Positions 16,743 through 53,222 of a DNA stretch of 64,000 nt are shown here, one piece after another. The notes below the pieces were generated by a model that saw only the letters and a list, made by a program, of their open reading frames with translations, made no database searches and was not told the origin of the DNA. This DNA comes from Candidatus Dormiibacterota bacterium (GTDB lineage: Bacteria; Chloroflexota; Dormibacteria; Aeolococcales; Aeolococcaceae). Position 1 is the first letter of the stretch, and each line of letters begins with the position of its first letter. A program made the translations under genes and the position numbers. Location of the stretch: assembly GCA_027365835.1 (NCBI GenBank), contig DAHXLU010000103.1:1260-65259 (forward strand), read 5' to 3'.

Positions 16743-17750
16743 GTGGAACAACAGGCGGTATTTGCCGATCGGAGCCGGGAAACTGCACCAGCCAGCCTGA
16801 CCGAGTTGTACAGCCGGTCGGCGGCCGCTGCAGCAGCCATCTTTGGCGCCACCAGCCACCGGGTAGATGTGGTCGATGACGGTGACCTTGAGATGGATTT
16901 CGCCCGCGCAGAATCCGATTTTTCCTTGCTCTCCCATGGGCGCCTGAGGATTCACAGGTCGGTAGCAGAGCAGCTGGAACGCTTCGTCCGGGGGGATTAC
17001 AGCACCATGGAGCCCGGAAGGGTGGACGCGGAGATGGCGGCGCTGGCGGGAGTCAAGGCTGCAGTTCTAACCCTTTTCAAGGAAGAAATCCGGGCGCTTG
17101 GGCCAGCCGATCCGGGGCTGATGAGGGCTGAGTGGGATGCCTACTGGAAACTTCCATATGTGCAGGGATTCAGTGAGGGAGTAAGAGAGGTTGCAGCACA
17201 GCTATTCCTGGACCGGTTTGTCCGTGAGCTGCAGCTTGACCGGCGCGATTGCCGTCTGCTGAACGTGAATCCACCGGATGTAGACCGCTGCTTTAGACGC
17301 TACAGTGAAGCAGCCCGTGCAGCCATAGGCGAAGTGGCAGACATTACAGGCGCTGATTTCGATGAAGAAGTGCGCTCCCTGGTGCGGGATGGCCAGGGTG
17401 AGCTGGCTATGCGCAGGATGTGTCTGCGCAGGGTACAGTCAGAGCCGGCCCTTTCTGGTGGCCGGTCTTCCATGGAGCTGTTTGTCCGGGTGCGGGAGGC
17501 AAACGAGAAAGTGCAGGGCCTGTTTTCCGGCGTCCAGAAGGAATGGGCACATGCAGATCCAGGGTACGCCCTGTCTGGCGAGCGCTATCGCCCACCGGTG
17601 GCCCGTCCAGAGGGTGCTCTGGCCCCGGTCCTGCGCAGGGTATCCGTACGCTTTTCCGACAGGAATCTTTCGGGGAAGGCGGTTCCACTGCTGCGTCCCC
17701 TGAGCCAGGCGCGTGCTGCAAGCCTTGATCCCTTCGGGGGCATCCAGTAG
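16743..17750 (+). CDS. Hypothetical protein (335 aa), unassigned
   Basis: Long ORF with GTG start on the same strand between tsaD and groES. Alpha-helical, Arg/Ala/Glu-rich composition; no recognisable motif. Confidence 0.45.
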   Translation: MEQQAVFADRSRETAPASLTELYSRSAAAAAAIFGATSHRVDVVDDGDLEMDFARAESDFSLLSHGRLRIHRSVAEQLERFVRGDYSTMEPGRVDAEMAALAGVKAAVLTLFKEEIRALGPADPGLMRAEWDAYWKLPYVQGFSEGVREVAAQLFLDRFVRELQLDRRDCRLLNVNPPDVDRCFRRYSEAARAAIGEVADITGADFDEEVRSLVRDGQGELAMRRMCLRRVQSEPALSGGRSSMELFVRVREANEKVQGLFSGVQKEWAHADPGYALSGERYRPPVARPEGALAPVLRRVSVRFSDRNLSGKAVPLLRPLSQARAASLDPFGGIQ

Positions 17751-26098: not shown

Positions 26099-27601
26099 AT
26101 GACGGCACAGTCGTCGCTGGTGGACCGGGTGGGGGTCCATGACAGCCACCGGCCGCAACATACAGACGGTGGTACCGGGCACTCCCACTATGGGCTGGCA
26201 CTTGCTGTGGTGGTCTGCGGGGTACTCATTGCCGCTGTCGATACGACGATCGTCGTTTTGGCGCTGCCAAAGATTGAGGCAGACCTGCACGTAAACGTCA
26301 CTGACGTGGTCTGGGTGATACTTAGCTATCTGCTGGTGGTGACGGTTCTCTCAACCCAGGTGGGCAGGCTTGGGGACATGTTTGGCAGGGTCCGCATGTA
26401 CCAGACAGGCTTTGCCATCTTTGTGGCAGGGTCGCTTCTTTGTGGGCTAGCCAGTAACGAGCTAACGATGATACTGTTCCGCATCCTGCAAGGCATCGGC
26501 GGAGCGCTGATAAGTGCCAACAGTGGCGCAGTCATTGCAGATATAGTGCCGGTCGAGCGGCGCGGTCGCGCCTACGGGTTCAATGCCATAGGCTGGAATC
26601 TAGGTGCCATTCTTGGGATCCTGCTTGGCGGGGCCATCACCACATTTACTACGTGGCGCTGGATATTTTTCATCAATGTGCCAATTGGCCTTCTGGCGCT
26701 TGGGGTATCCCTGAAAGTCTTGCACAGTACCGCCGAGCGACGCAGTCACAGGGTGGACTGGGCGGGTACTGTGACGTTGAGCCTGGGCCTCTTCTGCATT
26801 CTCTGGGCGGCAACCCAGTTTGCAACCAATCCCTTCGACCTTCAGATAGGAGCACTCTTCCTGGCTGGCTTGGTGCTGCTGGCCGGTTTTGCCGTTATGG
26901 AGACCAGGCACCCCGAGCCGCTTGTTTCCATGAGTCTGTTTCGCATCCCTACCATGCTCCCAGCCCTGTCGGCGGCATTTCTGCAGAGTCTGGCCAATTT
27001 TGCGGTCCTCTTTCTCGTAATCATGTATCTCCAGGGAGTAAGGCAGCTCACTCCCCTCAATGCATCAATCCTGCTGGTGCCGGGTTATCTTATGGGTGCT
27101 GTGGTCGGACCATTCGCCGGCAGGCTTTCTGACCGGGTTGGGGCAGTCTTTCCTGCTACGTTCGGTCTGGTGGTTCAGGCTGTGGCGCTTTTTATCTATG
27201 CCCAGCTCGGCACTTCGACCTGGCTTGGGCTGATTGTCGTAGCAAGCGTGGTAAACGGCATAGGGTCTGGATGCTTTTTCCCATCCAACAATGCTGCTGT
27301 CATGAAGGCGTCTCCGGGGCGGTCCTTCGGGGTGGCGTCGGGCATGCTGCGCACGTTTGCCAATGTGGGCATGGTGTTTTCCTTTGCGATGGCACTGGTG
27401 GTCGCAGCTCACGCGATACCGCGTTTTATTGCTTTTCGAATATTTGTCGGGAGCGAGTCTCTCTCCCATTCGCTGGCCTCATCCTTTGCCACTGGCCTGC
27501 ATTCGGCGTTTTATGCGTCCATGGTGGTAATGCTGCTGGCTGCCGTGATGTCGGCAGTGCGCAGACGAACTGCCCGGGCCAGGACGGATGCAGTCAGCTA
27601 A
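26099..27601 (+). CDS. MFS transporter, DHA2 (14-TMS drug:H+ antiporter) family
   Basis: 500 aa, about 14 predicted helices, with the GRLGDMFGR motif between TM2 and TM3. Confidence 0.8.
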   Translation: MTAQSSLVDRVGVHDSHRPQHTDGGTGHSHYGLALAVVVCGVLIAAVDTTIVVLALPKIEADLHVNVTDVVWVILSYLLVVTVLSTQVGRLGDMFGRVRMYQTGFAIFVAGSLLCGLASNELTMILFRILQGIGGALISANSGAVIADIVPVERRGRAYGFNAIGWNLGAILGILLGGAITTFTTWRWIFFINVPIGLLALGVSLKVLHSTAERRSHRVDWAGTVTLSLGLFCILWAATQFATNPFDLQIGALFLAGLVLLAGFAVMETRHPEPLVSMSLFRIPTMLPALSAAFLQSLANFAVLFLVIMYLQGVRQLTPLNASILLVPGYLMGAVVGPFAGRLSDRVGAVFPATFGLVVQAVALFIYAQLGTSTWLGLIVVASVVNGIGSGCFFPSNNAAVMKASPGRSFGVASGMLRTFANVGMVFSFAMALVVAAHAIPRFIAFRIFVGSESLSHSLASSFATGLHSAFYASMVVMLLAAVMSAVRRRTARARTDAVS

Positions 27602-27668
27602 GTAAAACTGCGTGTCCACTGACTTTCTACCGGTTGGGCACTGGCCGACCGGCCCGGGGTGTCCCTGG

Positions 27669-28553
27669 TCAGGTATCGCTGGGCAGTCCGAGATCTATTT
27701 TTGCCTGCTGGTCCAGGACCAGCTGCTCTGCCGCAAGATTCTCTTCAAGGTGCTGCAGCGAGGACGTGCCTGGAATGATAGCTGTGTTACTGGATACATC
27801 GAGCAGCCATGCCAGGGCAACCTGGGCCGGGGTTACACCAAGGCGCGCTGCAGTAGTGGTTACGGAGGGAGCTGTGAGTACCGGGTTGACCGTGGAAAAG
27901 CCCGACCCCAAGGGAAAGAACGGCACAAAGGTGATTGACTCCGCTTCGCATCGTCGCACCACCTCCAGGGACTTCCGGTCGATGATATTGAACGGGTTCT
28001 GGACACAGACCACCTCTGTGATCTTCAGCGCAGCTTCAAGCAGCGCGCTGCCGATGTTGCTAAGGCCGATGCCACCAACGATGCCCTCCTGCTTTAGCTC
28101 TGCCAGGGCGCCAATCTGATCCACGAAGAGTTGCTCATCCACTGATTTGCCGGCCGGCAGATCGGGTAGCCGCAGGTTGACGGCCGCAAGATAGTCAGTA
28201 TGCAGTGTGGTCAGGTTCTCAAGCACACCAACACGCAGTTCGCTGGGCGAGCTGGCGGGCAGCCATGCGCCCTGGGAGTTGCGCTTTGCCCCAACCTTGC
28301 TGATAAGTATCAGGTCGTCCGGGTAGGGGTGGAGTGCCTCGTGGATAAGCTCATTGACGACTGCTGGGCCGTAGTACTGTGCGGTGTCGATATGGTTGAC
28401 GCCGCGGTCTACGGCAGAACGCAATACCGCAAGCGCTTCAGTCCTGTCCTTCGGGGGACCAAATGCTCCAGGCCCTGCCAGCTGCATGGCGCCATATCCC
28501 ATCCGTCGGACAGTGTGCTTTCCAATCCGGATTTCATCGCGGTCATCGGCCAT
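27669..28553 (-). CDS. Aldo/keto reductase
   Basis: MADDRDEIRIGKHTVRRMGYGAMQL...IDTAQYYGP. Start chosen at the internal ATG because the 20-aa upstream extension is atypical. Confidence 0.8.
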   Translation of the reverse strand: MADDRDEIRIGKHTVRRMGYGAMQLAGPGAFGPPKDRTEALAVLRSAVDRGVNHIDTAQYYGPAVVNELIHEALHPYPDDLILISKVGAKRNSQGAWLPASSPSELRVGVLENLTTLHTDYLAAVNLRLPDLPAGKSVDEQLFVDQIGALAELKQEGIVGGIGLSNIGSALLEAALKITEVVCVQNPFNIIDRKSLEVVRRCEAESITFVPFFPLGSGFSTVNPVLTAPSVTTTAARLGVTPAQVALAWLLDVSSNTAIIPGTSSLQHLEENLAAEQLVLDQQAKIDLGLPSDT

Positions 28554-28651
28554 TTTTCCAGTGTACCGGACAGTGCCGAAAGGGGGGCGGCTCTTACAGC
28601 GGATGAGATACATGGTGGGACACCGGATCCCGACCCGCCAGGGCAGATTCG

Positions 28652-30175
28652 CTAATATCCGGGGAAGTAATCGGTCCTGATCCTTGCCCGGGGAACATGG
28701 AGCTCTCTCAGGCTGCGCTTCATGGCAGAAACCATCGGGGGCGATCCAGAGACATAGAAAATGCGCTCACGGTAATCGGGCACTTCTGCTGCTATCGCCT
28801 GTGCCGTAATGAAACCATACCGATAGCGCGGATCTCTTGCTTCTGTTTTTTCATGGGTCAGGAACGGAACGATGGATAGGCCGATTGCCTGCCTAGCCTC
28901 TTCAAACAGTCTCATGTAGCTCAGGCGCTCCTTCCGGTACTCGGAGTAGAGCAGAACTATGTCTCTTTTCTCCTTGCGGTCCATGAGGCTTTTGATCATG
29001 CTACGGAAAGGAGTTATTCCAACACCGCCCGCGATGAATACCAGTCGGGCCGAGGGATCCTTCGGCATAATGAAGTCGCCCCCAAGCTGCGATGCCGATA
29101 ATGCTGCAGCCTTTCCATGCTGCGATAGTGTCATAAGCTCCCGTTTGAAGCTGCTCGCCCTGGCGGGTATTATGAGGCCGAGTCGAAGGGTATCTTCGGT
29201 GGGGGCTGAGGCTATGGTGAAGTATCGGCGCACGCCGCGGCTGTCTGGATGCATGTGGGGGAGGGTCCACTCCATATACTGGCCAGGTTCAAAGGCTACC
29301 CGGCGGTCCACTGTAAAGACCAGGTCCGCCAGGTCTGGTCCGCTGGTTGTATGCCGGTTTCTAAGGACTGCGTTTATGCGTATCCTGGGGCTAACCAGGT
29401 AGGCATAGGCATTTCCGGCTACCAGTGCAAGTTCTGGGGTGAGAAAGATGGTTCCCAGATGCACCTGGGGTGGAAAGAGCATCCCGACCAGGCCTGCATA
29501 TATTCCCTGTTGCCGCAGCCGGGCTGGCAGGGTCATAGGCTCTGTCAGCATCACAGCGGCTAGAAAAAAGAGCGGAGACTGGATGAAGAGGCCCGTAAGG
29601 TCGCGTGCGAGCACTCCCGACTGCAGGCCGAGAACGACAGTTACGGCTGTTGCGGTCACGAGAAAGGTCGAGACTAGCGTCCAGCGCTGCAGTTTGGTGA
29701 CCACCACTATGCCCCCGGCAAGCACAAAGGGAAGCATCGCTGCACTACCTACCCACCAGCTTGCAGCCTGTCCCGCCAGAAGGGCAGTAAGAACTACCCC
29801 CATAGCGGCTGGGTTGAATACATGCACTTTATTAACTGCCAGCAAGTACTTTGTGGCGGTGGCAAGGACACTTGCGGCGACCAGAAACTCTGCAGTGGGG
29901 ACTGTTATTGCTGGAGTAATGATCAGGCTGAGAATGAGCGCAGTTATGATGGAGGATTCGGGGTTGGTGTGTGCTTCAAATGCCCAGGCAAACGCGCGGT
30001 TGGTGCCAATGCACGTGGCAAGCAGGATGGCGACTGAAAACAGGAGTGGGAGGATACCAAATTGCACCCGCCCGAATGCCGCCCAGAGAGCGCCTGCACC
30101 ATCCAGTGCGATCAGGTAGTAGAGCACAACGCGATACATCGTCAGCCCGCCGAGAAGCTGGTAGAGGCGTGTCAC
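28652..30175 (-). CDS. Fusion of an RnfD/NqrB-like membrane domain with a ferredoxin-NAD(P) reductase-like FAD/NAD(P)H domain
   Basis: N-terminal ~265 aa polytopic domain carrying VFNPAAMGVVL (cf. NPFNPAMIGYVVL in RsxD, as recalled) and MLTEPMT (cf. ILTDPVT), but no SGAT motif. C-terminal FNR fold with RRYFTIAS (FAD) and FIAGGVGITPFRSM (NAD(P)H). GTG start overlaps the apbE stop. Confidence 0.7.
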   Translation of the reverse strand: MTRLYQLLGGLTMYRVVLYYLIALDGAGALWAAFGRVQFGILPLLFSVAILLATCIGTNRAFAWAFEAHTNPESSIITALILSLIITPAITVPTAEFLVAASVLATATKYLLAVNKVHVFNPAAMGVVLTALLAGQAASWWVGSAAMLPFVLAGGIVVVTKLQRWTLVSTFLVTATAVTVVLGLQSGVLARDLTGLFIQSPLFFLAAVMLTEPMTLPARLRQQGIYAGLVGMLFPPQVHLGTIFLTPELALVAGNAYAYLVSPRIRINAVLRNRHTTSGPDLADLVFTVDRRVAFEPGQYMEWTLPHMHPDSRGVRRYFTIASAPTEDTLRLGLIIPARASSFKRELMTLSQHGKAAALSASQLGGDFIMPKDPSARLVFIAGGVGITPFRSMIKSLMDRKEKRDIVLLYSEYRKERLSYMRLFEEARQAIGLSIVPFLTHEKTEARDPRYRYGFITAQAIAAEVPDYRERIFYVSGSPPMVSAMKRSLRELHVPRARIRTDYFPGY

Positions 30176-30918
30176 CGGATTACGTACTTCAGGAAGTGGT
30201 CAGTGTAGGTAGCCCGTCCATTTGCTTCGATCATGTAGCCTTCAAAGCCCCCGAGGTCCTGGACAAAGTTGATTCCATTTAGCCCCATGGCAAACGCCGC
30301 AGTTGCAAACCGGTCTGCCTCGTAGGCATCTGGGCCGATGACTGTCAGGCTCACTACGCCATCGATGGTCGAGCCTGGCTTTAGGGGGTTGTAGACATGC
30401 TGCCCGCGCAGGTATGTTCCTGAAGTTGCCACGCCCATGCCGGTGACTGCCAGCACTTTTACGATCGTATCTGTATCAAATGGGTTGCGAATGCCCACGC
30501 TCCACGGTTCGCCCGCAGCATTTTTTCCATGGGCCTCAATGTCTCCACCGGCTTCGACATAGTAGTTTATGAAGCCATCCCTTCCGATACGGTCGGCACA
30601 GTTGTGGATTGCCCACCCCTTCACTAGCCCCGAGGGGTCGATAGTCCCGTTGCGCCACGCATCAAAGTAGCCGGCTGTGGCTCTTTTTGTCTCTTCGCAC
30701 AGCCGCACCACCTCATGCATCTCACTACTCCATTGTGTTGGGGGGCGGCCTGCGTTCACCTGGCAAACCTCGCTTGACGGCTTGAACGGACTGAACCGGT
30801 CATCCACCTGTTGCAGGTAGCGCAGTGCATTGTCAACGACAGTGTCGCCCGCCTTCTCATCCACAACCTCAATTGTTATGGGCATGCCCATGACGATGGC
30901 GCTCTTGCGTGCTGACAT
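30172..30918 (-). CDS. apbE: FAD:protein FMN transferase (ApbE/Ftp), no signal peptide
   Basis: Core ApbE motifs begin at residue ~10 (VMGMPITIEVVDE) and run to the C-terminal Mg-site region. Starts 2 nt after the FMN_bind gene stop. Confidence 0.85.
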   Translation of the reverse strand: MSARKSAIVMGMPITIEVVDEKAGDTVVDNALRYLQQVDDRFSPFKPSSEVCQVNAGRPPTQWSSEMHEVVRLCEETKRATAGYFDAWRNGTIDPSGLVKGWAIHNCADRIGRDGFINYYVEAGGDIEAHGKNAAGEPWSVGIRNPFDTDTIVKVLAVTGMGVATSGTYLRGQHVYNPLKPGSTIDGVVSLTVIGPDAYEADRFATAAFAMGLNGINFVQDLGGFEGYMIEANGRATYTDHFLKYVIR

Positions 30919-30920
30919 GG

Positions 30921-31478
30921 CTAGGCTTTTGCGAGCGCCTGGGCGAGCGACTGGATGAACCCCTCGCTGGTCGCTGTCGCTCCTGTGATGATATTGACCT
31001 GTGCTGACTGGGCCTGGATTGCTTCCTGTTGCAGGTACGGAAGTGCCTGCTGGCTCACGTAGGCAGAGTACTGGTGTGCGTTAGGGTATTGCAGCACCTG
31101 GACGCTGGTGAGCTTGCCATTGGCAATGGTGGCCCGCACCTGGACGTTGCCAAAGTAGACAAAGGTTGACGGCCCGGTGTAGGTGCCATCCCGATACTGG
31201 CTGGCAGAGGTGGGGGCTGGGGTTGCCGTCGTAGCTGCCGGGGTGGAGGCTGCGCCTGGACTGGCTGGAGGGGCAGCCTCTGAACTGGCAGCAGTAGCAG
31301 GAGGCGCACCTGGTGGTGTGCCAGGCGCAGAAGGAGAGGCTGACCTTTGCGACCTGCTTCCTGCTGGGGGGAGCAGTGCAACGGTCCCTGGGGCGGGGCT
31401 GGTCCTCATCTCGTAGCTGTATAGGCCAAGACCAGCAAGCACCAGTGCTGCAAGTGCTCCCTGTTTTGTGTTCCACAT
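30921..31478 (-). CDS. NqrC/RnfG-like FMN-binding domain protein (predicted ApbE substrate)
   Basis: ATG at 31478 preceded by GGAGAAAG. N-terminal hydrophobic segment, Pro/Ala/Ser/Thr linker, then an FMN_bind domain with the flavinylation motif IITGATATSEG. The long upstream ORF extension (to 31997) lacks coding character. Confidence 0.75.
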   Translation of the reverse strand: MWNTKQGALAALVLAGLGLYSYEMRTSPAPGTVALLPPAGSRSQRSASPSAPGTPPGAPPATAASSEAAPPASPGAASTPAATTATPAPTSASQYRDGTYTGPSTFVYFGNVQVRATIANGKLTSVQVLQYPNAHQYSAYVSQQALPYLQQEAIQAQSAQVNIITGATATSEGFIQSLAQALAKA

Positions 31479-31779
31479 GTGGGCTTTCTCCAGTTGAAGT
31501 GGTTGACCATCACAGGTGCGCTTTGCGCCTGGCGCACACCCCCGGCAATCATTGGGGTGATTATCCTGTCTACAACCTTTCGGTCGGGTTACCGGGAGAG
31601 CGGGTGGATCTGGCTGGGTGGGGCGAGTTCTGGTTTTGCTTCCTGCCTGTCTGTCCATGCGGTCTCTGCGGAGGTATTCATTGCTGGTGCGCGGTGTCAG
31701 GGCAACAGTGATCCAGGGGGCGGGTGCCCAGCAGCGCCTGGGAAGTGTGCCGTTATCCTGCGGCTGGGCTGCAGGGTGG

Positions 31780-33507
31780 CTACTCTGGTGGACCAAAAAG
31801 CGCACCCGACCATGCAGGCAGCTGCATGATCCTGGAGCCATCCTTCGTTTTGTTACGTTCCACTGCTGTGCTGGTTGTGAGCATTGGTCTGCCATGCGAC
31901 GGGCAGTCCGCATCCAGATCCCCCAGGTTGAGGACGACTGTGAAAGCACCCCGGCGCCATCCCCAGGTGCTCTTTTCCGGCAACTCTGCGTAACCACTCT
32001 CCCGGAGGTCGGTGTGGCTTCTGCGGAGCGCTATCAGCTTGCGCGTGAAGTTGAGGGTTGAGTCGGCATCTTTTTTTTGATCGGCTACATTGCGCTCCAG
32101 CGTTCCGAATGGGAGCCACGGAGTTACGGTAGGCGCCGTAAATCCAGCACCGGGCTCTGAATTCCACGGCATGGGAGTCCTTGAGGGATCCCTGCCAATA
32201 GTGTTTCCCTGGTGAGGGACCATGGTGTCGCGCTTTTGTGAAAGGGTTATGCGGGTGTCCTCCATTCCCAGCTCGTCGCCATAGTAGATGACAGGAACGC
32301 CTGGAAGCAGCAGCAGGAGCATGAGGATGCACCTGATCCTGTCCTCTTCACCGCCACCCCACCTGGTAGTAAAGCGCGACTTGTCATGGTTGGAAACAGT
32401 CCAGGTCGCTGTCGCACCAGGTGGCAGGAGAGCAAAGGTCTCCCTTGTTATGGAGCGCAGGACCGAAGGGTCGAATGGTGCATCCAGAAATGCTGCATTG
32501 AGGGTAAGGTGCAGTTCGGGGGCGTCTTCCGTGCCGTAGAAGGGGACCATGCGCGATGGATCGGTGACATAGGTTTCTCCATAGAGGAGCGGGGATGACT
32601 GGTACTCATCGGCAAGCCTGCGCCAGTGACGGTGAATTTCATGCACCTCGGGCTGTTCTCCGTTGTACAGGGGCCGCTGTCCACGTTCTACCCAGTCTTT
32701 TGGGTCAAGCGGCTGCGCGGGAGGGTTGTTCCTGAGCTTTGCGTCCTTGACAATCCCATGGGCCACATCTATCCGGAATCCGGCGATGTGCCGGTCCAGC
32801 CAGAAACGTAGGATCTCATCAAAGGCAGTTTTTACCTCTGGGTTCCACCAGTTGAGGTCGGGCTGGCAGGGGAGAAAGTTGTGCAGGTACCATTCGCCGC
32901 TCTTTTCATCCAGGGTCCAGGCTGGATCTACCGTTGCAGAGAGCCAGTTGTTGGGAGGGCCCCCATCGCGCCCTGCCGCAAAGACGTACCAGTCCCGGTG
33001 TCTCGCAGTACGCGAGCTTAAGGCGTCCGTAAACCAGGGATGACTGGAGCTTGTGTGGTTGGGCACCAGATCCAGCAGCACATGGATCCCGCGCTTGCCG
33101 GCTGCTTCCACCAGCCTGTCCATGTCATCCAGGGTCCCAAAGTCCGGATGCACGCCGGTGTAGTCCGACACGTCATACCCCCAGTCACCGTTGGGAGACG
33201 GCATGGTCGGATTGAGCCAGATCCCATCTATCCCGAGCCATGCGAGGTAATCCAGATGCTGGGTAATCCCCGGCAGGTCCCCGTATCCATCATGGTTGGA
33301 GTCGGCAAATGAGCGTGGGTAGATCTGGTAGAGCACAGCATTCTTCCACCACGGAGCAGGCGCTGCGCGAGGATGCGTTGGGTTGGCAACTGCGGGGGGC
33401 ACTTTCAAGGAAAGGATAGACCATACGCCCCTATGGGATTGGTGGCGTGCTTTCTGGCCAGGCGGGTGCCCTGGAAACCGCCTGGCGGATGGGGCAAAGG
33501 GCCCCAA
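31780..33507 (-). CDS. GH13 alpha-glucosidase / oligo-1,6-glucosidase-like
   Basis: WWKNAVLYQIYPRSF, GIDGIWLNP, RIDVAHGI, EVH...ET motifs of the alpha-amylase catalytic domain. Start uncertain (TTG at 33507 or GTG at 33402). Confidence 0.85.
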   Translation of the reverse strand: MGPFAPSARRFPGHPPGQKARHQSHRGVWSILSLKVPPAVANPTHPRAAPAPWWKNAVLYQIYPRSFADSNHDGYGDLPGITQHLDYLAWLGIDGIWLNPTMPSPNGDWGYDVSDYTGVHPDFGTLDDMDRLVEAAGKRGIHVLLDLVPNHTSSSHPWFTDALSSRTARHRDWYVFAAGRDGGPPNNWLSATVDPAWTLDEKSGEWYLHNFLPCQPDLNWWNPEVKTAFDEILRFWLDRHIAGFRIDVAHGIVKDAKLRNNPPAQPLDPKDWVERGQRPLYNGEQPEVHEIHRHWRRLADEYQSSPLLYGETYVTDPSRMVPFYGTEDAPELHLTLNAAFLDAPFDPSVLRSITRETFALLPPGATATWTVSNHDKSRFTTRWGGGEEDRIRCILMLLLLLPGVPVIYYGDELGMEDTRITLSQKRDTMVPHQGNTIGRDPSRTPMPWNSEPGAGFTAPTVTPWLPFGTLERNVADQKKDADSTLNFTRKLIALRRSHTDLRESGYAELPEKSTWGWRRGAFTVVLNLGDLDADCPSHGRPMLTTSTAVERNKTKDGSRIMQLPAWSGALFGPPE

Positions 33508-33552
33508 AAACCTCCCTGCTGGTTCCCGGTAGGACTGCTGCCGGGGCGGGCA

Positions 33553-35001
33553 ATGGCTCGATTAGCCAAGATACTGGAACAGGTCCGTCATCCTTCCGTT
33601 ACACACTTGTGGGTGATTCGCCACAAAGGGGCCTGGTTCATGATATTGTCCCTAGTAATGTCCGTCTGTGTGCGGGCTGGGCTGGATGATCAGGAGAGGA
33701 CTATGGCCATAGATACTGACGGAGTTGTCGTCCCACCGTTGCTAGATATGGAGATCGGTGAGGGTGAAGAGGTGTCTGCGCCGACACGGCAGATCATGCC
33801 GCCAAGACCTTCTGGTCTTGGGCTATTTGCAACATGGCCATCTCTTGCCAGAGACTATCGCCAGACGGAAGAGGGCGCTGTGGCCCTGTTCCCGGATGAT
33901 TCAGTCGAGCTTGAGGGCAGGGTTGGGCCGCGGGAGGTTTCCGGTGCGGTTATTCCCTCCCCTGTGGGTGTAGTGCCACCTTCCACGGCCTCGTCTGGCC
34001 AGGGATCCATGTGGCCAGCTCCTGGGCAACGCCTGGCAGCAACCCAAAAAGAGGGCGGTAGTGGCCTGGGGCTCTCTGACGCCATGGTCAGGGACTTTGC
34101 TCCTGGTGCGTCGGTGCGCTACCGGCAGGGAGCTCCTGCCGGGTGGAGAGGGCTCGTCTGGCGAGCGACAATGGGCCATGTGGTGGTTCCGGAGTCTGCA
34201 CGCGCCAGGCGGTCCGCCGAGCGGCTCACCAGGATACAGACGCCAGTAGCAGCATGTGCCAAGATCGCCTTTGCATCGGGAAAGGGAGGGGTGGGTAAAA
34301 CCACCGCAACACTTCTCTGCGGAACGGCTCTTTCCCTCCTGCGGGGCGACCGGATTGTTGCCATGGATGCTAACCCGGATGCCGGATCACTGGGATGGAG
34401 GGTGGACCGCCGCACAGACAGTACGCTTTCTGATCTTCTGCGTGATGCAGATACGATAAGCCGGTACGGGGATGTGCGCTCTTATATGAGTCAGTCTGAC
34501 TCCCGGCTGGAGGTGCTTGCCTCTGCGAATAACCCCTCGATCTCGATGGCCATGGGTGACGGTGAGTACCGGAGGGCGGTGGAGATAATAGAGCAGTACT
34601 ACAGCATGCTGCTCATGGATCTGGGTACTGGCCTTGTGGACGGAGGCACCCAGGCTATCCTGGGCCTGGCATCGCAGGTAGTGGTCATAACTTCTCCGAG
34701 TGTGGACTCTGGACGGATTGCTGATTTCACCCTGGATTTTATTGAAAAGCGAGATCCAGAAAAGGCGCGTGCTGCAATCGTTGTAATCAACAATGTACGC
34801 AAGGACAGCGCTATTGATGTAGATGCACTGGATGCGCACTTTGCAAGCCGCGCTGCTGCAGTTGTGAGGGTCCCTTGGGATGCCCATCTTTCTGCCGGGG
34901 ATATTCCCCGCTGGGAGCTGCTGCAGCCCCAGACGCGGGAAGCGTATCTGGATCTGGCGGCCCTGGTAGCCGCTGCCGCTGGCACCGGGGCTCCTGGCTG
35001 A
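33553..35001 (+). CDS. MinD/ParA-superfamily P-loop ATPase (CpaE/Ssd-like) with a long N-terminal extension
   Basis: Deviant Walker A IAFASGKGGVGKTT at about residue 250, Walker B LLMDLGTG, and a C-terminal CpaE/TadZ-like region. The N-terminal ~230 aa are low-complexity and unassigned. Start uncertain. Confidence 0.65.
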   Translation: MARLAKILEQVRHPSVTHLWVIRHKGAWFMILSLVMSVCVRAGLDDQERTMAIDTDGVVVPPLLDMEIGEGEEVSAPTRQIMPPRPSGLGLFATWPSLARDYRQTEEGAVALFPDDSVELEGRVGPREVSGAVIPSPVGVVPPSTASSGQGSMWPAPGQRLAATQKEGGSGLGLSDAMVRDFAPGASVRYRQGAPAGWRGLVWRATMGHVVVPESARARRSAERLTRIQTPVAACAKIAFASGKGGVGKTTATLLCGTALSLLRGDRIVAMDANPDAGSLGWRVDRRTDSTLSDLLRDADTISRYGDVRSYMSQSDSRLEVLASANNPSISMAMGDGEYRRAVEIIEQYYSMLLMDLGTGLVDGGTQAILGLASQVVVITSPSVDSGRIADFTLDFIEKRDPEKARAAIVVINNVRKDSAIDVDALDAHFASRAAAVVRVPWDAHLSAGDIPRWELLQPQTREAYLDLAALVAAAAGTGAPG

Positions 35002-40182: not shown

Positions 40183-40476
40183 ATGGCTGATCCCATATGG
40201 GTACATCTGCTGGGTGGCGTGGGCATGCCAGCGCCTCATGAGGACGTGTGGGCTGTTGCAGTACAGGAGACGATCCCTGCCTACGCCATGATGGGCCCCC
40301 CTGGCCTTCCTGGCGGCCAGCAACTGCAAGAGCCAAAGTGTGCCATTTACTATGTCGATGCCGCGACAGGTCACACAGTCAATGTCGAATATCGTGCCGC
40401 CTCTTCCTGGCCGGCCTGGTTTGGGGCTGCGCCAGCGTTGTCAATCGTCAGGCAGGTAGTGCGAAGAAGGGGATAG
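40183..40476 (+). CDS. Small hypothetical protein (97 aa)
   Basis: ATG 8 nt after GGGGAG, immediately downstream of an AT-rich promoter-like island. No motif recognised. Confidence 0.3.
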   Translation: MADPIWVHLLGGVGMPAPHEDVWAVAVQETIPAYAMMGPPGLPGGQQLQEPKCAIYYVDAATGHTVNVEYRAASSWPAWFGAAPALSIVRQVVRRRG

Positions 40477-40511
40477 CAATATGGCTGAAGAGAATAGAAA
40501 GGGTGGATGGC

Positions 40512-41228
40512 ATGATGATTACCAGTAGGCGAGTCTACTGGGCGCTCGTGGCAATTGCGGTGGTCGGTGCGTCGGTGGGTATTGTTTGTGCTGCTACTAA
40601 GTCCTCGCGACCTGCTTTGCCAGCAGCGACACCTACTCCGTCGGCCAGGGTCTCACCTTTCCCTTCAGCCTCCCCATCCCCATCCCCATCAGTGTCAGCA
40701 TCGCCCATGGCAGTGGGTGCGCTCCCAACCTGTACCGCATCAGATCTTGTGCTTACGCCGGGGAGCCCCTATCTTGGTGTGGATGCGAATACTACGCTGT
40801 CAGAGGCATACGTGTTGAAAAACGTAAGCGCCAAGGCATGTAGCATGGCTGGTTATCCAGTGTTTACACCAGTGTTTACATATGTAGCTACGACCGGAGC
40901 CGTGGAGTCGGGTGTAACCTATAACCCTCAGGGGCCCAATCAAAATGGTAATGCGCCACCTATCGTGGTACCTACCACCAGGGTTCTGGTTCCGGCGGAT
41001 GGATTTGTGGCATTTGGGACTGTGATAAACCCAATTGAATGCAGCGTTGACGCTCCTGATGTCCGCCCTGAAATCTCATGGAGGGGCTCTTTGGGGCAGG
41101 TCGCATTGCCGGGAACCCAGGCGACAGCATGTGCGGTTCAAATACTCCCCTTTGCCGATCCCGCTACGATGTATGCCGCTGCGGAGGTGGTGGTACACAG
41201 GGGGCCTGCTCTCCCTGTAAATCCATAG
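40512..41228 (+). CDS. Secreted/membrane-anchored DUF4232-like protein
   Basis: Tandem ATG after a GAAAGGG ribosome-binding-site-like stretch. N-terminal transmembrane/signal helix, a Pro/Ser/Ala linker, then a C...SDL...G....L.N.S...C.M.GYP pattern typical of DUF4232. Confidence 0.6.
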   Translation: MMITSRRVYWALVAIAVVGASVGIVCAATKSSRPALPAATPTPSARVSPFPSASPSPSPSVSASPMAVGALPTCTASDLVLTPGSPYLGVDANTTLSEAYVLKNVSAKACSMAGYPVFTPVFTYVATTGAVESGVTYNPQGPNQNGNAPPIVVPTTRVLVPADGFVAFGTVINPIECSVDAPDVRPEISWRGSLGQVALPGTQATACAVQILPFADPATMYAAAEVVVHRGPALPVNP

Positions 41229-42120: not shown

Positions 42121-42459
42121 CCTGGCTATCTCCTCTCGCTATTGGCTAACTGCCCATCATCGGAAAAGGTTCTGTCATCCTTCGATCTCCTTTCTTGGGA
42201 TCCAGTCTGACTGGATTTCGGCTGGAGCAGAGCAACGACCAATGGCACCGGTGGGCTTGTGGACTTGAGCTCCAGATACTTTCGGCAATCCCCGGGGCGG
42301 ATCCCTGCTGCGCCTGTCCCTGGATGATTCCAGGCTGTCAGGCGGTCCGTGTATCTTGCTGCGCGCTTACTCATTCTCGACCCATAGTGGGGGCTGGTTC
42401 CGGAAGGGTTCTGGGAGGGGTGGACCCATCCCAGACAGCAGGGACCCGGAGGAGGGTAG

Positions 42460-44737
<2,278 letters not shown>

Positions 44738-48961: not shown

Positions 48962-50152
48962 TCAGTCCGGAGTCTGCAGTGTGTAGACGGCAGCCGCGAG
49001 CCCGACAACAACGCTGGGCAGAAGCGCTACCGGGGTAGCCTGGTTAATGTTGCCGCCCCGGCCAAAAAGGACAAGGACGTAGTAGAGGATTGTGTCCAGG
49101 ACAGTGAAGGAAACGATCCAGGCAGCGGCTCCGCGCAGCAGTCGTGCCCGTATGGTCCTTGCCCTCATAATCCTGGTGGGGTAGCTTGCTGGCATTCTGA
49201 AGGTGAAACAGGAAACTGGGAGTGGTGTCACTGGCTTCACCCCGCGAGGCTGCAACGCACTTGCGCCAGATGCTGGGGCTTGCGGTTGCTGCGACAGAAG
49301 CCCTGTGGGGGAGAAAGAGGGCGGCAGCCATGGAGGAGTTGCTGGCGCTGCCGGAGTGGCCCCTGCCGCGCTGGATGGAGTAGCACCCTGCCCTTCCTCA
49401 GCTGCCCCCTGTAGCACCTGGAGGCCGAGGAGTAGATGGGTATGTCGGCCCACTGTCGCTACAACACTTTCTGCACCAGTCAGCGGGCTCACCAGGCTCT
49501 TGTCCCCGATGAGGATGCCGTAGCTGCCGATCCTGGCACCCAGGAAAACGCCCAGGCGGCTGTACAGCAGAATCGGGCTGTGCCAGAATTCATCTGCCGT
49601 AAAGTAGGTTGGTGCGGTGAGGCTCCCGGTTATCACCTGGCACGAGCGCGCCCTTTGCTCCCGGTAGCACTGTACAGGCAGTAGTGCTGCTACCGCCGCG
49701 AGCAGGCCGCCAACTGCAATTCCTAGCGGACTTGGTGCCTGCGCTGCCATTCGCAGTGTGACGACAATCAGGGCAACGCAAACTACCGTGCCCATAAGTA
49801 TGTACTGGGTAAGGTGGTTGCTCTGGTGGCTAGCCAGCACCCCCCTGGAATTTTCCTGCAACACTGGATGCTGGGGGGCGACAGCGACAAGTGCACTGAG
49901 GGCCATTCCTGCAGGAGAGGAAAGATTGGCCGGACTGGTTTGGTCGAATGCGGGGGGCGGTCCGGACGCCGCCGGTGGCTGGGGCTGGGGCTGGGGCTGG
50001 GGCTGGGGCTGGGGCTGGGGCTGGGGCTGGGGCTGGGGCTGGGGCTGGGGCTGGGGCACCTCGCCAGCTGGATCCTTCGTTGTCACGCCACTCCTGCAGC
50101 GCGTGCCCCGGCTAGTCCGGACAGCGGGGCTGGGAGCAGGGGTGTGTGCCAT
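48962..50152 (-). CDS. Membrane protein with an N-terminal (PQ)13 repeat (hypothetical)
   Basis: Longest ORF in the interval, 40 nt downstream of and co-directional with the MarP-like gene. (PQ)13 encoded by (GGCTGG)13, a Pro-rich linker, then several transmembrane helices. Plus-strand alternatives are Trp/Cys/Arg-rich junk. Confidence 0.45.
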   Translation of the reverse strand: MAHTPAPSPAVRTSRGTRCRSGVTTKDPAGEVPQPQPQPQPQPQPQPQPQPQPQPQPQPPAASGPPPAFDQTSPANLSSPAGMALSALVAVAPQHPVLQENSRGVLASHQSNHLTQYILMGTVVCVALIVVTLRMAAQAPSPLGIAVGGLLAAVAALLPVQCYREQRARSCQVITGSLTAPTYFTADEFWHSPILLYSRLGVFLGARIGSYGILIGDKSLVSPLTGAESVVATVGRHTHLLLGLQVLQGAAEEGQGATPSSAAGATPAAPATPPWLPPSFSPTGLLSQQPQAPASGASALQPRGVKPVTPLPVSCFTFRMPASYPTRIMRARTIRARLLRGAAAWIVSFTVLDTILYYVLVLFGRGGNINQATPVALLPSVVVGLAAAVYTLQTPD

Positions 50153-50191: not shown

Positions 50192-51382
50192 CTATCCATT
50201 GGCACAGCTTTGGGTGCTGACTGCTGTTGTGCTCCCAAGGCCAGCATGGATGTCGGGCTCTATCTGACCGACACTCAGCGCGTATCCCTCGTTGGGATAG
50301 ATCGTGCTTGCAGCAAATACCATTCCGATCACAGCTCCATTATCTGCTACCAGTGGACCGCCAGAGTTGCCAGGAATCACCCTGGCCGCTATGGCTTCAA
50401 TCTCCCGGGTGACCAGGGCATTCCCATAAATGTCCCAGCCTTCAGCTTCCTCGCTACCCCGTACTGCTGCAGGTACGACCTGCTCCACCCCGCCCCCAGG
50501 ATAGCCGATTACAGCGCCAGTGGTTCCCCTGGAGGGCAGGACTGTCTGTACCGGCAGAGCCGGAGACGAAAGCCCTGGCACATAGAGCACCGCTACATCG
50601 ACCTTGGGGTCAAAGAAGACGACGGTAGCCGGGTAGTCTCCGTTTTCAGGCCCAAACACCATCACATTGGCACCGCCTGCGACAACGTGGGCATTGGTGA
50701 CTATGTAGTGGGGGGCAGCAGGCCAGCCGGAGCCTGATTCGATCCCGCCACATCCCCGTGCAACCACCTTGACTGTCAGGCCCGCATCGCGGATGATCCC
50801 TTTTGTGTTGGCGCTCGCCGGGATCTGTACGGGTGGCAGAAACTTCTGGTAGATCGTGGCGAATGGGTCAGGAAAGCTGTTTCCCTGCAGGACGGAACTG
50901 ACCGATCCCAGAAAGCCAGGTGGGCGCGGCGCCAGGTGGTCCAGCCAGGTTTCGATTGTGGAGCCCCGGATCTGCCGGTCCAGCGCCGGGATTGGGCTGC
51001 CGACAAAGATCAGCCCGAGATACCAGCAGAAGGCAAGGGTGGCCAGGCCCGCCAGCAGGCTCCCCCCAGCAGAATCAGTGGTGATCCATCTTGCCCTTGA
51101 GCGGATGGTAGCCGAGCGCAGAGTGAAGCCGATCGTGGTGCCGATGCCCTCGACGATGAGGATGCAGCCCAGGAATACACCGCTCCCGATAAATGCCCGG
51201 GCGCTGTTGTTGCCGTGGGATAGTGCTGTTGCCAGCGGTGGGGCTACCAGGGCTCCAAGGACTGTACCAGCTACGATACCCGCCACCGAGAGCCCCACCC
51301 AGGTCATGCCACGCTGGTATCCGGCAAAGGCGCAGAGCGCGACCACGATCAGGATGATGATATCGAGTATGTCCATAGGCAC
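50192..51382 (-). CDS. MarP-like membrane serine protease (CvpA domain fused to trypsin-like S1 domain)
   Basis: N-terminal 4-TM CvpA domain, then an S1 protease with the IVTNAHVV (His), Asp and GNSGGPL (Ser) triad motifs. Confidence 0.85.
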   Translation of the reverse strand: MPMDILDIIILIVVALCAFAGYQRGMTWVGLSVAGIVAGTVLGALVAPPLATALSHGNNSARAFIGSGVFLGCILIVEGIGTTIGFTLRSATIRSRARWITTDSAGGSLLAGLATLAFCWYLGLIFVGSPIPALDRQIRGSTIETWLDHLAPRPPGFLGSVSSVLQGNSFPDPFATIYQKFLPPVQIPASANTKGIIRDAGLTVKVVARGCGGIESGSGWPAAPHYIVTNAHVVAGGANVMVFGPENGDYPATVVFFDPKVDVAVLYVPGLSSPALPVQTVLPSRGTTGAVIGYPGGGVEQVVPAAVRGSEEAEGWDIYGNALVTREIEAIAARVIPGNSGGPLVADNGAVIGMVFAASTIYPNEGYALSVGQIEPDIHAGLGSTTAVSTQSCANG

Positions 51383-52208: not shown

Positions 52209-53222
52209 CTACCAACCGCTCGGGATATACGGCGGGACCACGAGTGTGACTGCGTACATTCCATCCCTAAGGACACGATAGTCTATGTCTGTCCACCCCT
52301 TGGTATTGACACTCTGACAGGGGTTTGTCGATGGACTGACTACGCCTGGAAGGTTTAGGATAAGCTGCTCCCTTGAGGGAAAGGAGACCCGGCCAGCCCA
52401 TGTATTCTCCCACCAGATCGCCCTGTGGTTCCACAGGATCGCATGGGGTCCTCCGGATCCCAAGGCAAAGCACGCCCGCACCGGTGGTCCCCATCCGTTG
52501 CCGTTGAGACGGGACGTGAACCAAGCAGTGATGGATTTTGCGTTGGCAGTGGAGTACCAAACTGTTCTCAGTTGAGGGTTCGACTCTGGGAGGGTTGTGA
52601 ATGTCACTGTGTCGCGCACTGACCCGGGATATGTGAGGCGTGCCTCGGGGTTGGCAGAAAGGGTTGCGGGGTCTACGGTGTTGGTGGTTATCCGCGTAAA
52701 CGTAGCGGCAAGTGCAACAAGCACCAACCCCGTGGCTGTGAACGTCACCAGCTGAAATTTCTTCGGAACCGACGCAGAGAAAGGAAAAACTGCCAAGCCC
52801 AGTATCCCTGCCAGCAATACTTCCCAAAGCCCAGTGACTAGGCCTATGATCAGCAGAGCGGTCCCGGTAAGGATGGCAAGGCGGACGCTCCGGTAACCCG
52901 AAAGCGTCTGTCCAACCAGATCGGCACCTCCAGACACAGAGGCGACTGCCAAGCCCAAGACTCCAACCAGCCCTAGTTGGGGCGGGCCGATCGTTGAACT
53001 GGCAACGACCATGAGGAGCGCGCAAGACGCAATGGCGCCTATAGCGGTCACTCGGTACCACGGGATGGGTCGGCCTTCCAAATCGCCGGCGCGATACACA
53101 GAGGCGCCTGCCAGACCAAGTATTCCAGTGAGGACAAGCTCTGGCGAGGCAGCCGTTACACCAATAAAGAATAGTGTACAAGCCACAGTGGCGGCGATAC
53201 CGGCCGCTAGGTATCCCCTCAT
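52209..53222 (-). CDS. Membrane protein with a conserved C-terminal extracytoplasmic domain (paralog 1, hypothetical)
   Basis: MRGYLAAGIAA... with 5-6 transmembrane helices, then a ~150-aa domain sharing ARLTYPGS.RD, TVW.S.A..K.ITAWFTS.L.G.GWG.P..AC, WAG.V.FP, NPC and YAVTLVV with the neighbouring gene. Confidence 0.6.
   Translation of the reverse strand: MRGYLAAGIAATVACTLFFIGVTAASPELVLTGILGLAGASVYRAGDLEGRPIPWYRVTAIGAIASCALLMVVASSTIGPPQLGLVGVLGLAVASVSGGADLVGQTLSGYRSVRLAILTGTALLIIGLVTGLWEVLLAGILGLAVFPFSASVPKKFQLVTFTATGLVLVALAATFTRITTNTVDPATLSANPEARLTYPGSVRDTVTFTTLPESNPQLRTVWYSTANAKSITAWFTSRLNGNGWGPPVRACFALGSGGPHAILWNHRAIWWENTWAGRVSFPSREQLILNLPGVVSPSTNPCQSVNTKGWTDIDYRVLRDGMYAVTLVVPPYIPSGW

Follow-up and report, generated by a model that had tools for sequence, protein, structure and literature searches.

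A divergent NQR/RNF-like flavinylation-associated locus with a signal-less ApbE in a Dormibacterota genome

Organization and conservation of the locus

The window (the whole 64,000-nucleotide stretch of DNA analyzed here) carries three translationally coupled genes on its minus strand at positions 28652-31478. The first encodes an NqrC/RnfG-type FMN_bind subunit of 185 amino acids (30921..31478 including the stop codon), as indicated by the ORF, Pfam and an NCBI call of 185 amino acids. The second encodes an ApbE-type FAD:protein FMN transferase of 248 amino acids (30172..30918), identified by its ORF and Pfam. The third encodes a 507-amino acid fusion of an NqrB/RnfD-fold membrane domain and an NqrF-like FAD/NAD(P)H domain (28652-30175). 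The tight coupling claimed in the original prediction was confirmed by reading the junctions directly: a 2-nt gap separates the FMN_bind and ApbE genes (GCC TAG cc ATG), and the ApbE gene ends in CGG TGA, with the GTG start of the fusion overlapping the stop codon as GTGA.

Gene starts were assigned individually. The FMN_bind ORF occupies 30921-31997 of the minus strand, and its likeliest true start is ATG 31478, which has a Shine-Dalgarno-like GGAGA motif 8 nt 5′ of it. Alignments of ApbE with its relatives begin at query residues 2-8 and the first strand of its AF2 model begins at residue 3, making ATG 30918 a better start than the Met10 called by NCBI. The same two observations place the beginning of the ApbE core near residue 3 rather than near residue 10, as had been proposed. 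Relatives of the fusion have about 12 residues N-terminal to a conserved TMYRL, which favors the 507-amino acid GTG start over NCBI's 495-amino acid call. We rejected the idea that the FMN_bind and ApbE genes are one split or frameshifted gene, since they lie in different frames and are separate proteins in essentially all relatives. Scans of 27400-32000 for promoters and terminators returned nothing exceeding shuffled expectation. An Rfam scan of the window found one tRNA only.

The three-gene module recurs in 76 of 81 loci and its gene order in about 75 of 80 species-level genomes of CPR, Chloroflexota and Dormibacterota; many of its hosts are Patescibacteria. The ApbE gene lies directly upstream of the fusion gene in 67 of 74 loci; all three loci that were sampled by way of ApbE are arranged as FMN_bind, ApbE, fusion. 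Family members fall into more than 4606 clusters when grouped at 90% identity, or into 278 at 50% identity when restricted to E<=1e-30, and they occur in at least 541 GTDB species. The window's fusion shares 62% identity with its nearest relative and about 50% with the bulk of the family; two Ktedonobacteria loci have the same gene order as the window and 46-47% identity. Across the 81 loci only the three genes are conserved: the module contains no NqrD/E (RnfA/E) or Fe-S subunits and no flavin exporter, and no conserved acceptor gene lies beside it. The neighboring aldo/keto reductase (27669-28613), GH13 amylase and MFS genes of the window were dismissed as parts of the system, being not kept beside the module in these loci. 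A two-component system was likewise rejected as a conserved regulator, since just about 8 of the 81 loci (roughly 10%) have one immediately upstream in the same orientation; such regulators are uninformative on the acceptor. Some relatives adjoin FUR or rhodanese genes.

The fusion protein and its flavinylated partner

The membrane domain of the fusion (residues 1-265; 29381..30175, minus strand) was previously assigned to the RnfD/NqrB family, and the lack of a significant RnfD/NqrB hit was named as evidence that would count against this. Taken literally, that is what Pfam returned: the N-terminal 276 amino acids have no match even at E<=10, PF03116 was not found, and the two closest relatives likewise lack it. 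The assignment nevertheless stands on structure and alignment. Between 244 and 247 residues superpose, which is nearly the whole NqrB/RnfD core, and hhalign matches both motifs common to RnfD/NqrB that had been pointed out in the sequence. FNPAAMG (residues 120-126; 29798..29818, minus strand) aligns to NPFNPAMIG of RsxD, with F120, N121, P122 and A124 unchanged throughout 117 relatives. LTEPMT (residues 210-215; 29531..29548, minus strand), corresponding to LTDPVT, aligns to FFILTDPVTAS of RsxD and also to ATDPVTSP of A. vinelandii RnfD; E212, P213 and T215 are invariant in relatives. An apparent correspondence between the WW motif of RnfD (residues 81-100) and ASWWVG, given by the first HMMER profile match, proved spurious by hhalign, the true correspondence running via FNPA.

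The absence of SGAT from the fusion was also correctly predicted, and no [ST]GA[ST] motif of any kind is present. The alignment takes this further: RsxD residues ~143-225, including GISQATPLD, fall in a gap of the fusion. The NqrB/RnfD flavinylated loop, about 80 residues bearing the flavinylated Thr, is thus deleted and not just mutated. The searched text of PMC8238504 and PMC10979944 does not mention deletion versus substitution of this loop.

The remainder of the fusion (residues 266-507 plus the stop codon; 28652..29380, minus strand) is an FNR/NqrF-type FAD- and NAD(P)H-binding domain. It matches Pfam NAD_binding_1 (PF00175, E 7.4e-13, residues 380-486), the part of the suggested HMM check that did succeed, and combines an FAD-binding β-barrel carrying Rx[YF][ST] with an NAD(P)-binding Rossmann fold carrying GGxGxxP, as expected of FNR-type proteins. 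The fusion has one Cys in total, C55. A single Cys means that no Fe-S cluster is possible; Fe-S and haem cofactors were ruled out for this reason, leaving flavins as the only plausible cofactors. In agreement with the original prediction, no NqrA/D/E or Fe-S parts were found among the surveyed genes of the window.

These features also bear on whether the fusion might be an energy-coupled mini-pump, in which the passage of electrons outward across the NqrB/RnfD-fold domain would be linked to Na+ or H+ movement, conserving or consuming ion-motive force in the manner of NQR and RNF. Retention of nearly the whole NqrB/RnfD core would fit this, as would the invariant polar residues embedded in the membrane (E73, S74, K109, N121, E212, T215 and N255). 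However, NqrD/E (RnfA/E), which belong to the redox-driven translocation machinery of NQR and RNF, are absent from both the module and the surveyed window genes, and one-way outward electron flow would already be electrogenic, so that a pump is not needed. We regard such coupling as quite unlikely.

The FMN_bind subunit was identified by Pfam (PF04205, E 2.4e-8, residues 109-182), and its nearest solved structure is the SaFMN3-D2 domain (8p2a, E 1.9e-12), for which flavinylation by ApbE has been demonstrated experimentally. The expected ApbE flavinylation motif is present as N-I-I-T-G-A-T (residues 162-168; 30975..30995, minus strand), with a phosphoester-linked FMN predicted at Thr168 (codon 30975-30977). 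In relatives the motif reads V-[DN]-x-[VI]-[ST]-G-A-[TS]-x-[TS]-S-x-[AG]-F, the Gly being conserved in 76 of 77, and the Ala and the Thr/Ser in all 77. The window's protein has Asn in place of the Asp of Dxx[ST]GA[ST], as do 22 of these relatives (Asp in 47, other residues in 8).

As noted earlier, the subunit has a single hydrophobic segment, a signal-anchor helix at residues 7-23 (GALAALVLAGLGLYSYE; 31410..31460, minus strand) preceded by MWNTK. Its topology had been called ambiguous, and this does not hold at the level of the family. The equivalent of the anchor in relatives is MKK and then a stretch of about 18 residues without charge; in 50 of 51 the N-terminal flank has a higher net charge than the C-terminal one, which predicts an N-in/C-out orientation. 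The export signal is thus deduced from hydrophobicity and charge. A Pro/Ala/Ser/Thr-rich linker (residues 27-95; 31194..31400, minus strand), 80% P/A/S/T in composition, joins the anchor to the FMN_bind domain. Linkers are shorter in relatives, whose proteins are mostly 150-200 amino acids long.

An ApbE without an export signal

The identification of the second gene as an ApbE flavin transferase was borne out by Pfam (PF02424, E 1.1e-38) and by an AF2 model with a pLDDT of 94.4. Foldseek searches with this model gave TM(query) values of 0.82-0.89 to FmnB, ApbE and Ftp structures; the closest fold is FmnB (TM(query) 0.87, E 8e-20), with V. cholerae ApbE at 0.85. The catalytic-core motifs (30301..30429, minus strand) are ATSGTY (residues 164-169), GQHVYNP (172-178, with His174) and EADRFAT (200-206, with Asp202 and Thr206), which align with ISTSGSY, HVIDP and EADGWDT of Salmonella ApbE. 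Residues T165, S166, G167, H174, D202 and T206 are invariant across 76 short ApbEs. Tyr60 of Ftp_Ec, an aromatic residue over the isoalloxazine ring, marks the FAD-binding/transferase type as opposed to the pyrophosphatase type. A weak local alignment and a shared STYK motif map it to position 45. At least 90% of the clade have Tyr there; the window's enzyme has Phe. Judging from its sequence, the enzyme is predicted to transfer FMN from FAD to Thr168 of its partner.

This ApbE has no signal peptide, as originally predicted, and none appears after start reassignment. A start-codon artefact was rejected: an in-frame stop lies immediately 5′ of the ORF, the TAG of the preceding gene is 2 nt upstream, and none of 74 related loci has a signal-like N-terminal extension (in 40 there is room for fewer than 18 residues upstream, and the extensions possible in the other 34 are not signal-like). 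The best 120 database relatives are all 234-256 amino acids long, and no signal peptide, lipobox or membrane segment was found on the cluster ApbE of any relative examined. A short, signal-less ApbE is therefore a family-wide trait. The searched text of Meheust et al. 2021 (PMC8238504) and Huang et al. 2024 (PMC10979944) makes no mention of the missing signal peptide. It does not fit with flavinylation of an extracytosolic substrate, and constitutes a testable inconsistency in the current model.

One way out of this inconsistency is an inward-facing arrangement, with the FMN_bind domain in the cytoplasm and flavinylated there. The module would then be a compact oxidoreductase of NAD(P)H with quinone or another membrane acceptor, retaining only the NqrF to flavin to NqrB logic. 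In Na+-NQR, electrons leave for quinone through NqrB, and the absence of an export signal from ApbE across the whole clade would be explained. There are also known cases of cytoplasmic ApbEs acting on FMN_bind domains that are themselves cytoplasmic: the Klebsiella pneumoniae enzyme has no signal peptide and flavinylates a soluble cytoplasmic fumarate reductase (reviewed in PMC12052999). Yet the positive flank preceding the anchor in 50 of 51 relatives predicts the opposite orientation, and the window's 69-residue linker is of a kind typical of exported, wall-spanning proteins. Patescibacteria, which make up many of the hosts, generally lack quinones. Moreover, the FMN_bind domain lies on the extracytosolic side in the published multimer model (PMC10979944). 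We consider an inward-facing FMN_bind domain unlikely.

Keeping the domain outside, we tentatively suggest that the signal-less ApbE works in the cytoplasm, drawing on cytosolic FAD to flavinylate the NqrC-like subunit before its domain is translocated or while this happens, or else that the enzyme gets to the outer face along some unrecognised route; either may well turn out to be wrong. If true, this would represent a new way of maturing an exported covalent flavoprotein, needing neither an exporter for FAD nor export of ApbE, and it could explain how genome-reduced Patescibacteria come to have an extracytosolic flavin redox center.

Predicted electron flow and comparison with known systems

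Based on these observations and the published proposal, the locus is probably an NQR/RNF-like, flavinylation-associated transmembrane electron-transfer system with outward flow. The cytoplasmic FNR/NqrF-type domain, whose identity is clear, would oxidize NAD(P)H, its likely substrate, on FAD. Electrons would cross the membrane via the NqrB/RnfD-fold domain, presumably holding at least one non-covalent flavin, and pass to the FMN that ApbE is predicted to link covalently to the FMN_bind subunit at Thr168. Charge bias and the published AF-multimer of a relative lead to the prediction that an N-terminal helix anchors this subunit and that its domain lies on the outer side of the cytoplasmic membrane. 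The subunit interface is likewise modeled on that relative, which shares about 46-47% identity at class level. Electrons would finally reach an extracytosolic acceptor encoded outside the module. Flow would be one-way, making the module a functional, flavin-only analogue of NOX/ferric-reductase enzymes.

The lack of a conserved, dedicated acceptor gene leaves room for dioxygen as the physiological acceptor, whether in a flavin-based NADPH-oxidase analogue making extracellular H2O2 or superoxide or in O2 detoxification at the cell surface. This case is purely circumstantial, and the FUR and rhodanese neighbors of some relatives point to metal reduction instead, as do the VIT1 iron transporters that accompany six NQR/RNF-like clusters in the searched text of PMC8238504. 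Dioxygen therefore seems a very improbable acceptor.

This compact module (two structural genes and a maturase) is one of the few redox systems common to many Patescibacteria (CPR), Chloroflexota and Dormibacterota. It would be the simplest known flavin-only wiring of cytoplasmic NAD(P)H to the cell exterior, provided that the published model is correct, and would then be relevant to how organisms that lack classical respiratory chains balance their redox state, acquire iron or deal with oxidants.

The closest known counterpart is the NQR/RNF-like system, already defined bioinformatically as flavinylation-associated in 2021 (Meheust et al., eLife, PMC8238504). The searched text of that paper gives as operational definition a PF03116 membrane domain with a C-terminal cytosolic PF00175, and requires ApbE and/or FMN_bind within five genes, at least one with a signal peptide or lipidation site. 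In the window, the fusion gene is immediately preceded by those for FMN_bind and ApbE, and FMN_bind has a signal-anchor-like segment. Both have an NqrB/RnfD-like domain fused to PF00175, an NqrC/RnfG-like FMN_bind subunit and an ApbE in the cluster; both have lost the NqrB/RnfD flavinylation site, and they occur in the same phyla. Loss of this Thr is described in the searched text of Huang et al. 2024 (PMC10979944), whose AF-multimer model of the Ktedonobacter racemifer complex places the FMN_bind domain of the NqrC-like subunit on the extracytosolic face and its covalent FMN site near the vacated NqrB/RnfD pocket. The window differs in having a membrane domain below Pfam detection and an unusually long P/A/S/T linker. 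Its host is apparently related to Dormibacterota, to which the LigA neighbors point with no more than 54-57% identity. Since it lacks PF03116, it would be missed under the literal Pfam definition, and as divergent members escape in this way, Pfam-based censuses such as that of 2021 (127 genomes, PMC8238504) undercount the family. The locus is therefore a divergent member of the published system. As originally stated, the fusion is not a characterized enzyme, and we found no experimental characterization of any module member in the literature; its architecture and proposed role are, however, not new, the same functional proposal appearing already in PMC8238504.

Na+-NQR (NqrA-F) and RNF (RnfA-E,G) share with the module the NqrF-type FAD/NAD domain, an FMN_bind domain with the ApbE motif, and the FNPA and LT[DE]P motifs. 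In contrast, the module has no NqrA/D/E or RnfA/B/C/E subunits, its fusion has no 2Fe-2S or other Fe-S center, and its NqrB/RnfD-fold domain has no covalent-FMN Thr, the S-G/Q-A-T loop being deleted. Its FMN_bind is a minimal domain of about 85 amino acids whose sequence resembles SaFMN3-D2 more than it does NqrC/RnfG, and its flow is predicted to be one-way where the NQR/RNF path is semicircular. The flavin-based EET of Listeria (Ndh2, EetA/B, PplA, FmnB) also has an ApbE-flavinylated, membrane-tethered, extracytosolic FMN_bind outer carrier in a monoderm-type envelope. It uses the quinone pool, the lipoprotein FmnB and an ECF transporter that exports FAD (as given in the searched text of PMC9973259), whereas the module would couple NAD(P)H directly via one polypeptide and has an ApbE without export signal. 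Canonical periplasmic ApbEs are lipoproteins, while the module's clade lacks an N-terminal signal peptide or lipobox and is about 70% of their size (TM(target) 0.64-0.71). It resembles the Klebsiella ApbE in the former respect; the Klebsiella substrate is cytoplasmic, whereas the adjacent substrate in the module is predicted to be exported. Finally, NOX/ferric reductases (FRE) have a six-helix di-haem membrane domain in place of an NqrB/RnfD fold with presumed flavin, and the likeness of the two membrane parts is one of analogy, not homology.

Gene boundaries and the two halves of the fusion protein

ORF calling placed three genes on the minus strand of the window: an FMN_bind gene with a maximal ORF at 30921-31997, an ApbE gene (248 aa) at 30172-30918 and, at 28652-30175, a gene for a 507-aa fusion of an NqrB/RnfD-fold membrane domain to an FNR/NqrF-type FAD/NAD(P)H domain. 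ATG 31478 is the most likely start of the FMN_bind gene and yields a protein of 185 aa: a GGAGA motif lies 8 nt 5′ of this codon, the end of the upstream amylase gene is at 31780, and the NCBI annotation of the identical contig DAHZFG010000015.1 (assembly GCA_027402615.1) has the same start. The 300-nt non-coding stretch from the stop of this GH13 amylase gene to the FMN_bind start (31479-31779) is likely the module's promoter region; a σ70 consensus scan of it gave no promoter match. Direct reading of the sequence confirmed the tight spacing first described for these genes. The FMN_bind/ApbE junction is TAG-cc-ATG, with a 2-nt gap, and the ApbE/fusion junction (CGGTGA) contains a GTGA overlap that sets the fusion's GTG start within the ApbE TGA stop. 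The NCBI starts are shorter for both the fusion (Met13, 495 aa) and ApbE (Met10, 239 aa). We favor the longer forms, since ~12 conserved-pattern residues precede TMYRL in relatives of the fusion, alignments of ApbE relatives begin at query residue 2-8, and the first β-strand of the ApbE AF2 model comprises residues 3-9.

The C-terminal half of the fusion is an FNR-type FAD/NAD domain. It matches NAD_binding_1 (E 7e-13, residues 380-486), has NqrF as its top PDB sequence match (7qty, E 5e-14), carries RRYFT and GGVGITP motifs, and ends in a nearly invariant Tyr. The N-terminal 265 residues gave no Pfam match even at E≤10, an outcome that the original prediction, taken literally, counted as refuting; the RnfD/NqrB domain fails as a Pfam assignment but stands as a homology seen through relatives and profiles. 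PF03116 was matched by 15 of 18 full-length relatives (best E 1.6e-13), a 15-sequence profile matched A. vinelandii RnfD at E 5.7e-4, and hhalign against E. coli RsxD (NC_000913.3) gave 92.5% probability (E 5e-7, columns 16-268 against residues 18-346). On these sequence comparisons, homology of the membrane domain to NqrB/RnfD is solid. The FNPAAMG and LTEPMT signatures noticed earlier align with NPFNPAMIG and FFILTDPVT of RsxD. Since RsxD residues ~143-225, the loop with GISQATPLD and its flavinylated Thr, fall opposite a gap in the hhalign alignment, this alignment indicates that the flavinylated loop of NqrB/RnfD is deleted in the fusion, not just mutated. The fusion has a single Cys, so an Fe-S centre is impossible, in line with the proposed lack of an Fe-S domain, and Fe-S or haem ligands are absent. 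The proposed lack of NqrA, NqrD and NqrE agrees with our survey of window genes, among which no further Nqr/Rnf parts were found.

Membrane topology of the FMN_bind protein and the missing ApbE signal peptide

The 185-aa protein matches Pfam FMN_bind (E 2.4e-8) and contains an N-I-I-T-G-A-T motif in which the predicted FMN-bearing Thr is residue 168. Across 77 relatives, the flavinylation motif retains Gly in 76 and both Ala and Thr/Ser in all 77. The closest solved structure by sequence is neither NqrC nor RnfG; it is the 89-aa SaFMN3-D2 (8p2a, E 1.9e-12), whose ApbE-attached FMN has been proven by experiment (PMC10339131). The N-terminus of the window protein consists of MWNTK, GALAALVLAGLGLYSY and EMR, and by itself it is as ambiguous in topology as first judged. 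The ambiguity does not extend to the relatives, which begin with MKK followed by ~18 uncharged residues. Their N flanks average 2.0 Lys/Arg and are almost free of acidic residues, and in 50 of 51 proteins the net charge is higher there than in the C flank. Based upon this charge excess and the positive-inside rule, we predict that the N-terminal segment is a signal anchor, with the FMN_bind domain outside (N-in/C-out). The linker of the window protein, with 69 residues of which 80% are Pro/Ala/Ser/Thr, is compatible with an exported, wall-spanning tether.

The 248-aa protein matches Pfam ApbE (E 1.1e-38), and its reported lack of a signal peptide proved true both in the window and clade-wide. 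In the window, an in-frame stop lies immediately 5′ of the ORF and the TAG of the preceding gene is 2 nt away. The possible upstream extension is under 18 residues in 40 of 74 ApbE relatives; it is longer in the other 34 and is not signal-like. In GC-rich genomes, this extension is an out-of-frame overlap with the FMN_bind gene and is typically Arg/Pro/Gly-rich. Among database relatives, the 120 best, whose gene calls come from several independent pipelines, all have lengths of 234-256 aa. The AF2 model (pLDDT 94.4) is folded from residue 3 on. Compared with FmnB, V. cholerae ApbE, P. stutzeri ApbE and T. pallidum Ftp, the model gave a TM(query) of 0.82-0.89 but a TM(target) of only 0.64-0.71, and the protein is therefore a complete but compact core.

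His174, T165-S166-G167 and Asp202/Thr206 are invariant in the ApbE clade. At the position of Ftp_Ec Tyr60, at least 90% of the clade has Tyr, and the window protein has Phe; a transferase-type enzyme in which this Tyr is changed to Asn or Ala becomes an FAD pyrophosphatase (PMC4767422). Given the missing signal, the complete fold, the catalytic hallmarks and the aromatic residue at the Tyr60 position, ApbE appears to be an active FMN transferase retained in the cytoplasm. Known cytoplasmic ApbEs act on substrates in the same compartment (PMC12052999). The absence of a signal throughout the clade is a genuine inconsistency with an extracytosolic model. Flavinylation of the exported subunit in the cytoplasm is possible, if somewhat doubtful. 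An NAD(P)H:quinone-type enzyme that faces inward would square with a cytosolic ApbE but is at odds with both the FMN_bind charge bias and the host range, and we consider it unlikely.

Distribution, gene neighborhood and host

Relatives of the fusion form more than 4606 clusters at 90% identity, mostly ~505 aa in length and annotated PF00175 + PF03116, and the fusion occurs in at least 541 GTDB species representatives. The membrane domain alone, used as query, recovered 278 clusters at 50% identity (E≤1e-30); most are ~500 aa long, so the fusion is the rule. By record labels, the best 80 genomic loci include ~32 Patescibacteria, ~22 Chloroflexota (among them Dictyobacter and a Ktedonobacteraceae MAG), 2 Dormibacterota and 2 Actinomycetota, and the remainder are unclassified or labelled Gammaproteobacteria in third-party assemblies. 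Seven third-party MAG assemblies (loci L008, L009, L030, L035, L060, L072 and L079) carry the label "uncultured Gammaproteobacteria"; their modules resemble those of Patescibacteria, and the labels may be wrong.

All-against-all ORF clustering of 81 loci gave only three recurrent gene families, the fusion (81), ApbE (76) and FMN_bind (76). No other gene is kept beside the module in these loci, including the window's aldo/keto reductase, amylase and MFS genes. In 67 of 74 cases, ApbE is the gene immediately 5′ of the fusion and shares its strand, and the order FMN_bind, ApbE, fusion was found in all three independently sampled ApbE relatives. In the window, the aldo/keto reductase gene (27669-28613, minus strand; Pfam E 2e-46) follows the fusion gene after 38 nt, in the same orientation, and may therefore be co-transcribed with it; it is not beside the module in the other 80 loci. 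An OmpR-type response regulator and a histidine kinase are located 5′ of the module in ~10% of loci, directly upstream and on the same strand in ~8 of 81 (L086, 807-2488; L087, 736-2407). At L086, a FUR regulator and a rhodanese are encoded just downstream of the module (5285-5919 region). These neighbors may indicate metal- or redox-responsive control.

The remaining window is housekeeping (MurA, CdaA, GlmS, Alr, TsaE/B/D, GroEL, UvrD, LigA, UvrC, PGK, TPI and iPGM). The top named matches of LigA are all Candidatus Dormibacterota (54-57% identity), and a divergent relative of this phylum is the probable host. All 2-kb bins of window 1-64000 have a positive GC skew, and cumulative skew rises monotonically; most large genes are on the plus strand and the flavin module is on the opposite one. 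A 449-aa ORF (7675-9024, plus strand) joins an ACPS domain (4′-phosphopantetheinyl transferase, residues 9-111) to an NAD(P)H-hydrate dehydratase (Carb_kinase, 163-417), and in a 396-aa protein (50192-51382, minus strand) a membrane domain of the CvpA/Colicin-V-production type forms the N-terminal part of a fusion with a trypsin-like serine protease domain. The plus-strand ORF at 33373-35001 (maximally 542 aa; 432 aa in the NCBI version) has a CbiA/ParA-type ATPase domain only at residues 298-506, and its long N-terminal part lacks a Pfam match. For a 300-aa ORF (2692-3594, plus strand), the match to the MreB/Mbl profile covers just the profile's first half (positions 3-175 of 327, E 2e-14); the ORF may encode an actin-like protein that is truncated or divergent. 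No Pfam family (E≤1e-5) was found for five ORFs of 258-396 aa (16743-17750, 40248-41228, 42126-42902, 48962-50152 and 52209-53222).

Proposed electron route and relation to described systems

The module is a conserved, translationally coupled three-gene unit, and we think it probable that it forms an outward conduit from NAD(P)H to covalent FMN. The FAD of the cytoplasmic FNR domain would be reduced by NAD(P)H, electrons would cross the membrane via at least one non-covalent flavin of the NqrB/RnfD-fold domain, and the Thr168-linked FMN of the tethered subunit would take them up at the outer face. An ion-coupled mini-pump is a quite unlikely alternative to this outward conduit. From the covalent FMN, electrons would pass to an acceptor encoded outside the module, with Fe(III), free flavins, O2 and other redox proteins as candidates; the variant in which the conduit acts as a NOX-like oxygen reductase is very unlikely.

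The fusion architecture is already published. In the searched text of Meheust et al. 2021 (PMC8238504), "NQR/RNF-like systems" are defined by the same fusion, with PF03116 joined to PF00175 and its gene located in a flavinylation cluster. The searched text of Huang et al. 2024 (PMC10979944) presents an AlphaFold-Multimer model of the two-subunit complex of Ktedonobacter racemifer, and reports that these systems do not conserve the flavinylation site of NqrB/RnfD and that the site flavinylated in the NqrC-like subunit adjoins what appears to be a non-covalent flavin site in the NqrB-like subunit. Neither searched text mentions the missing ApbE signal peptide, and a full-text literature search found no other treatment of, or experimental work on, NQR/RNF-like systems. 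The original observation is thus confirmed and its interpretation supported: the system is a divergent representative of a kind defined by bioinformatics. To the published descriptions, this analysis adds a member that fails the Pfam definition yet is detected, evidence for deletion of the flavinylated loop, a larger census in which just three genes are conserved, and an ApbE that is signal-less throughout its clade, which is the best experimental lead.
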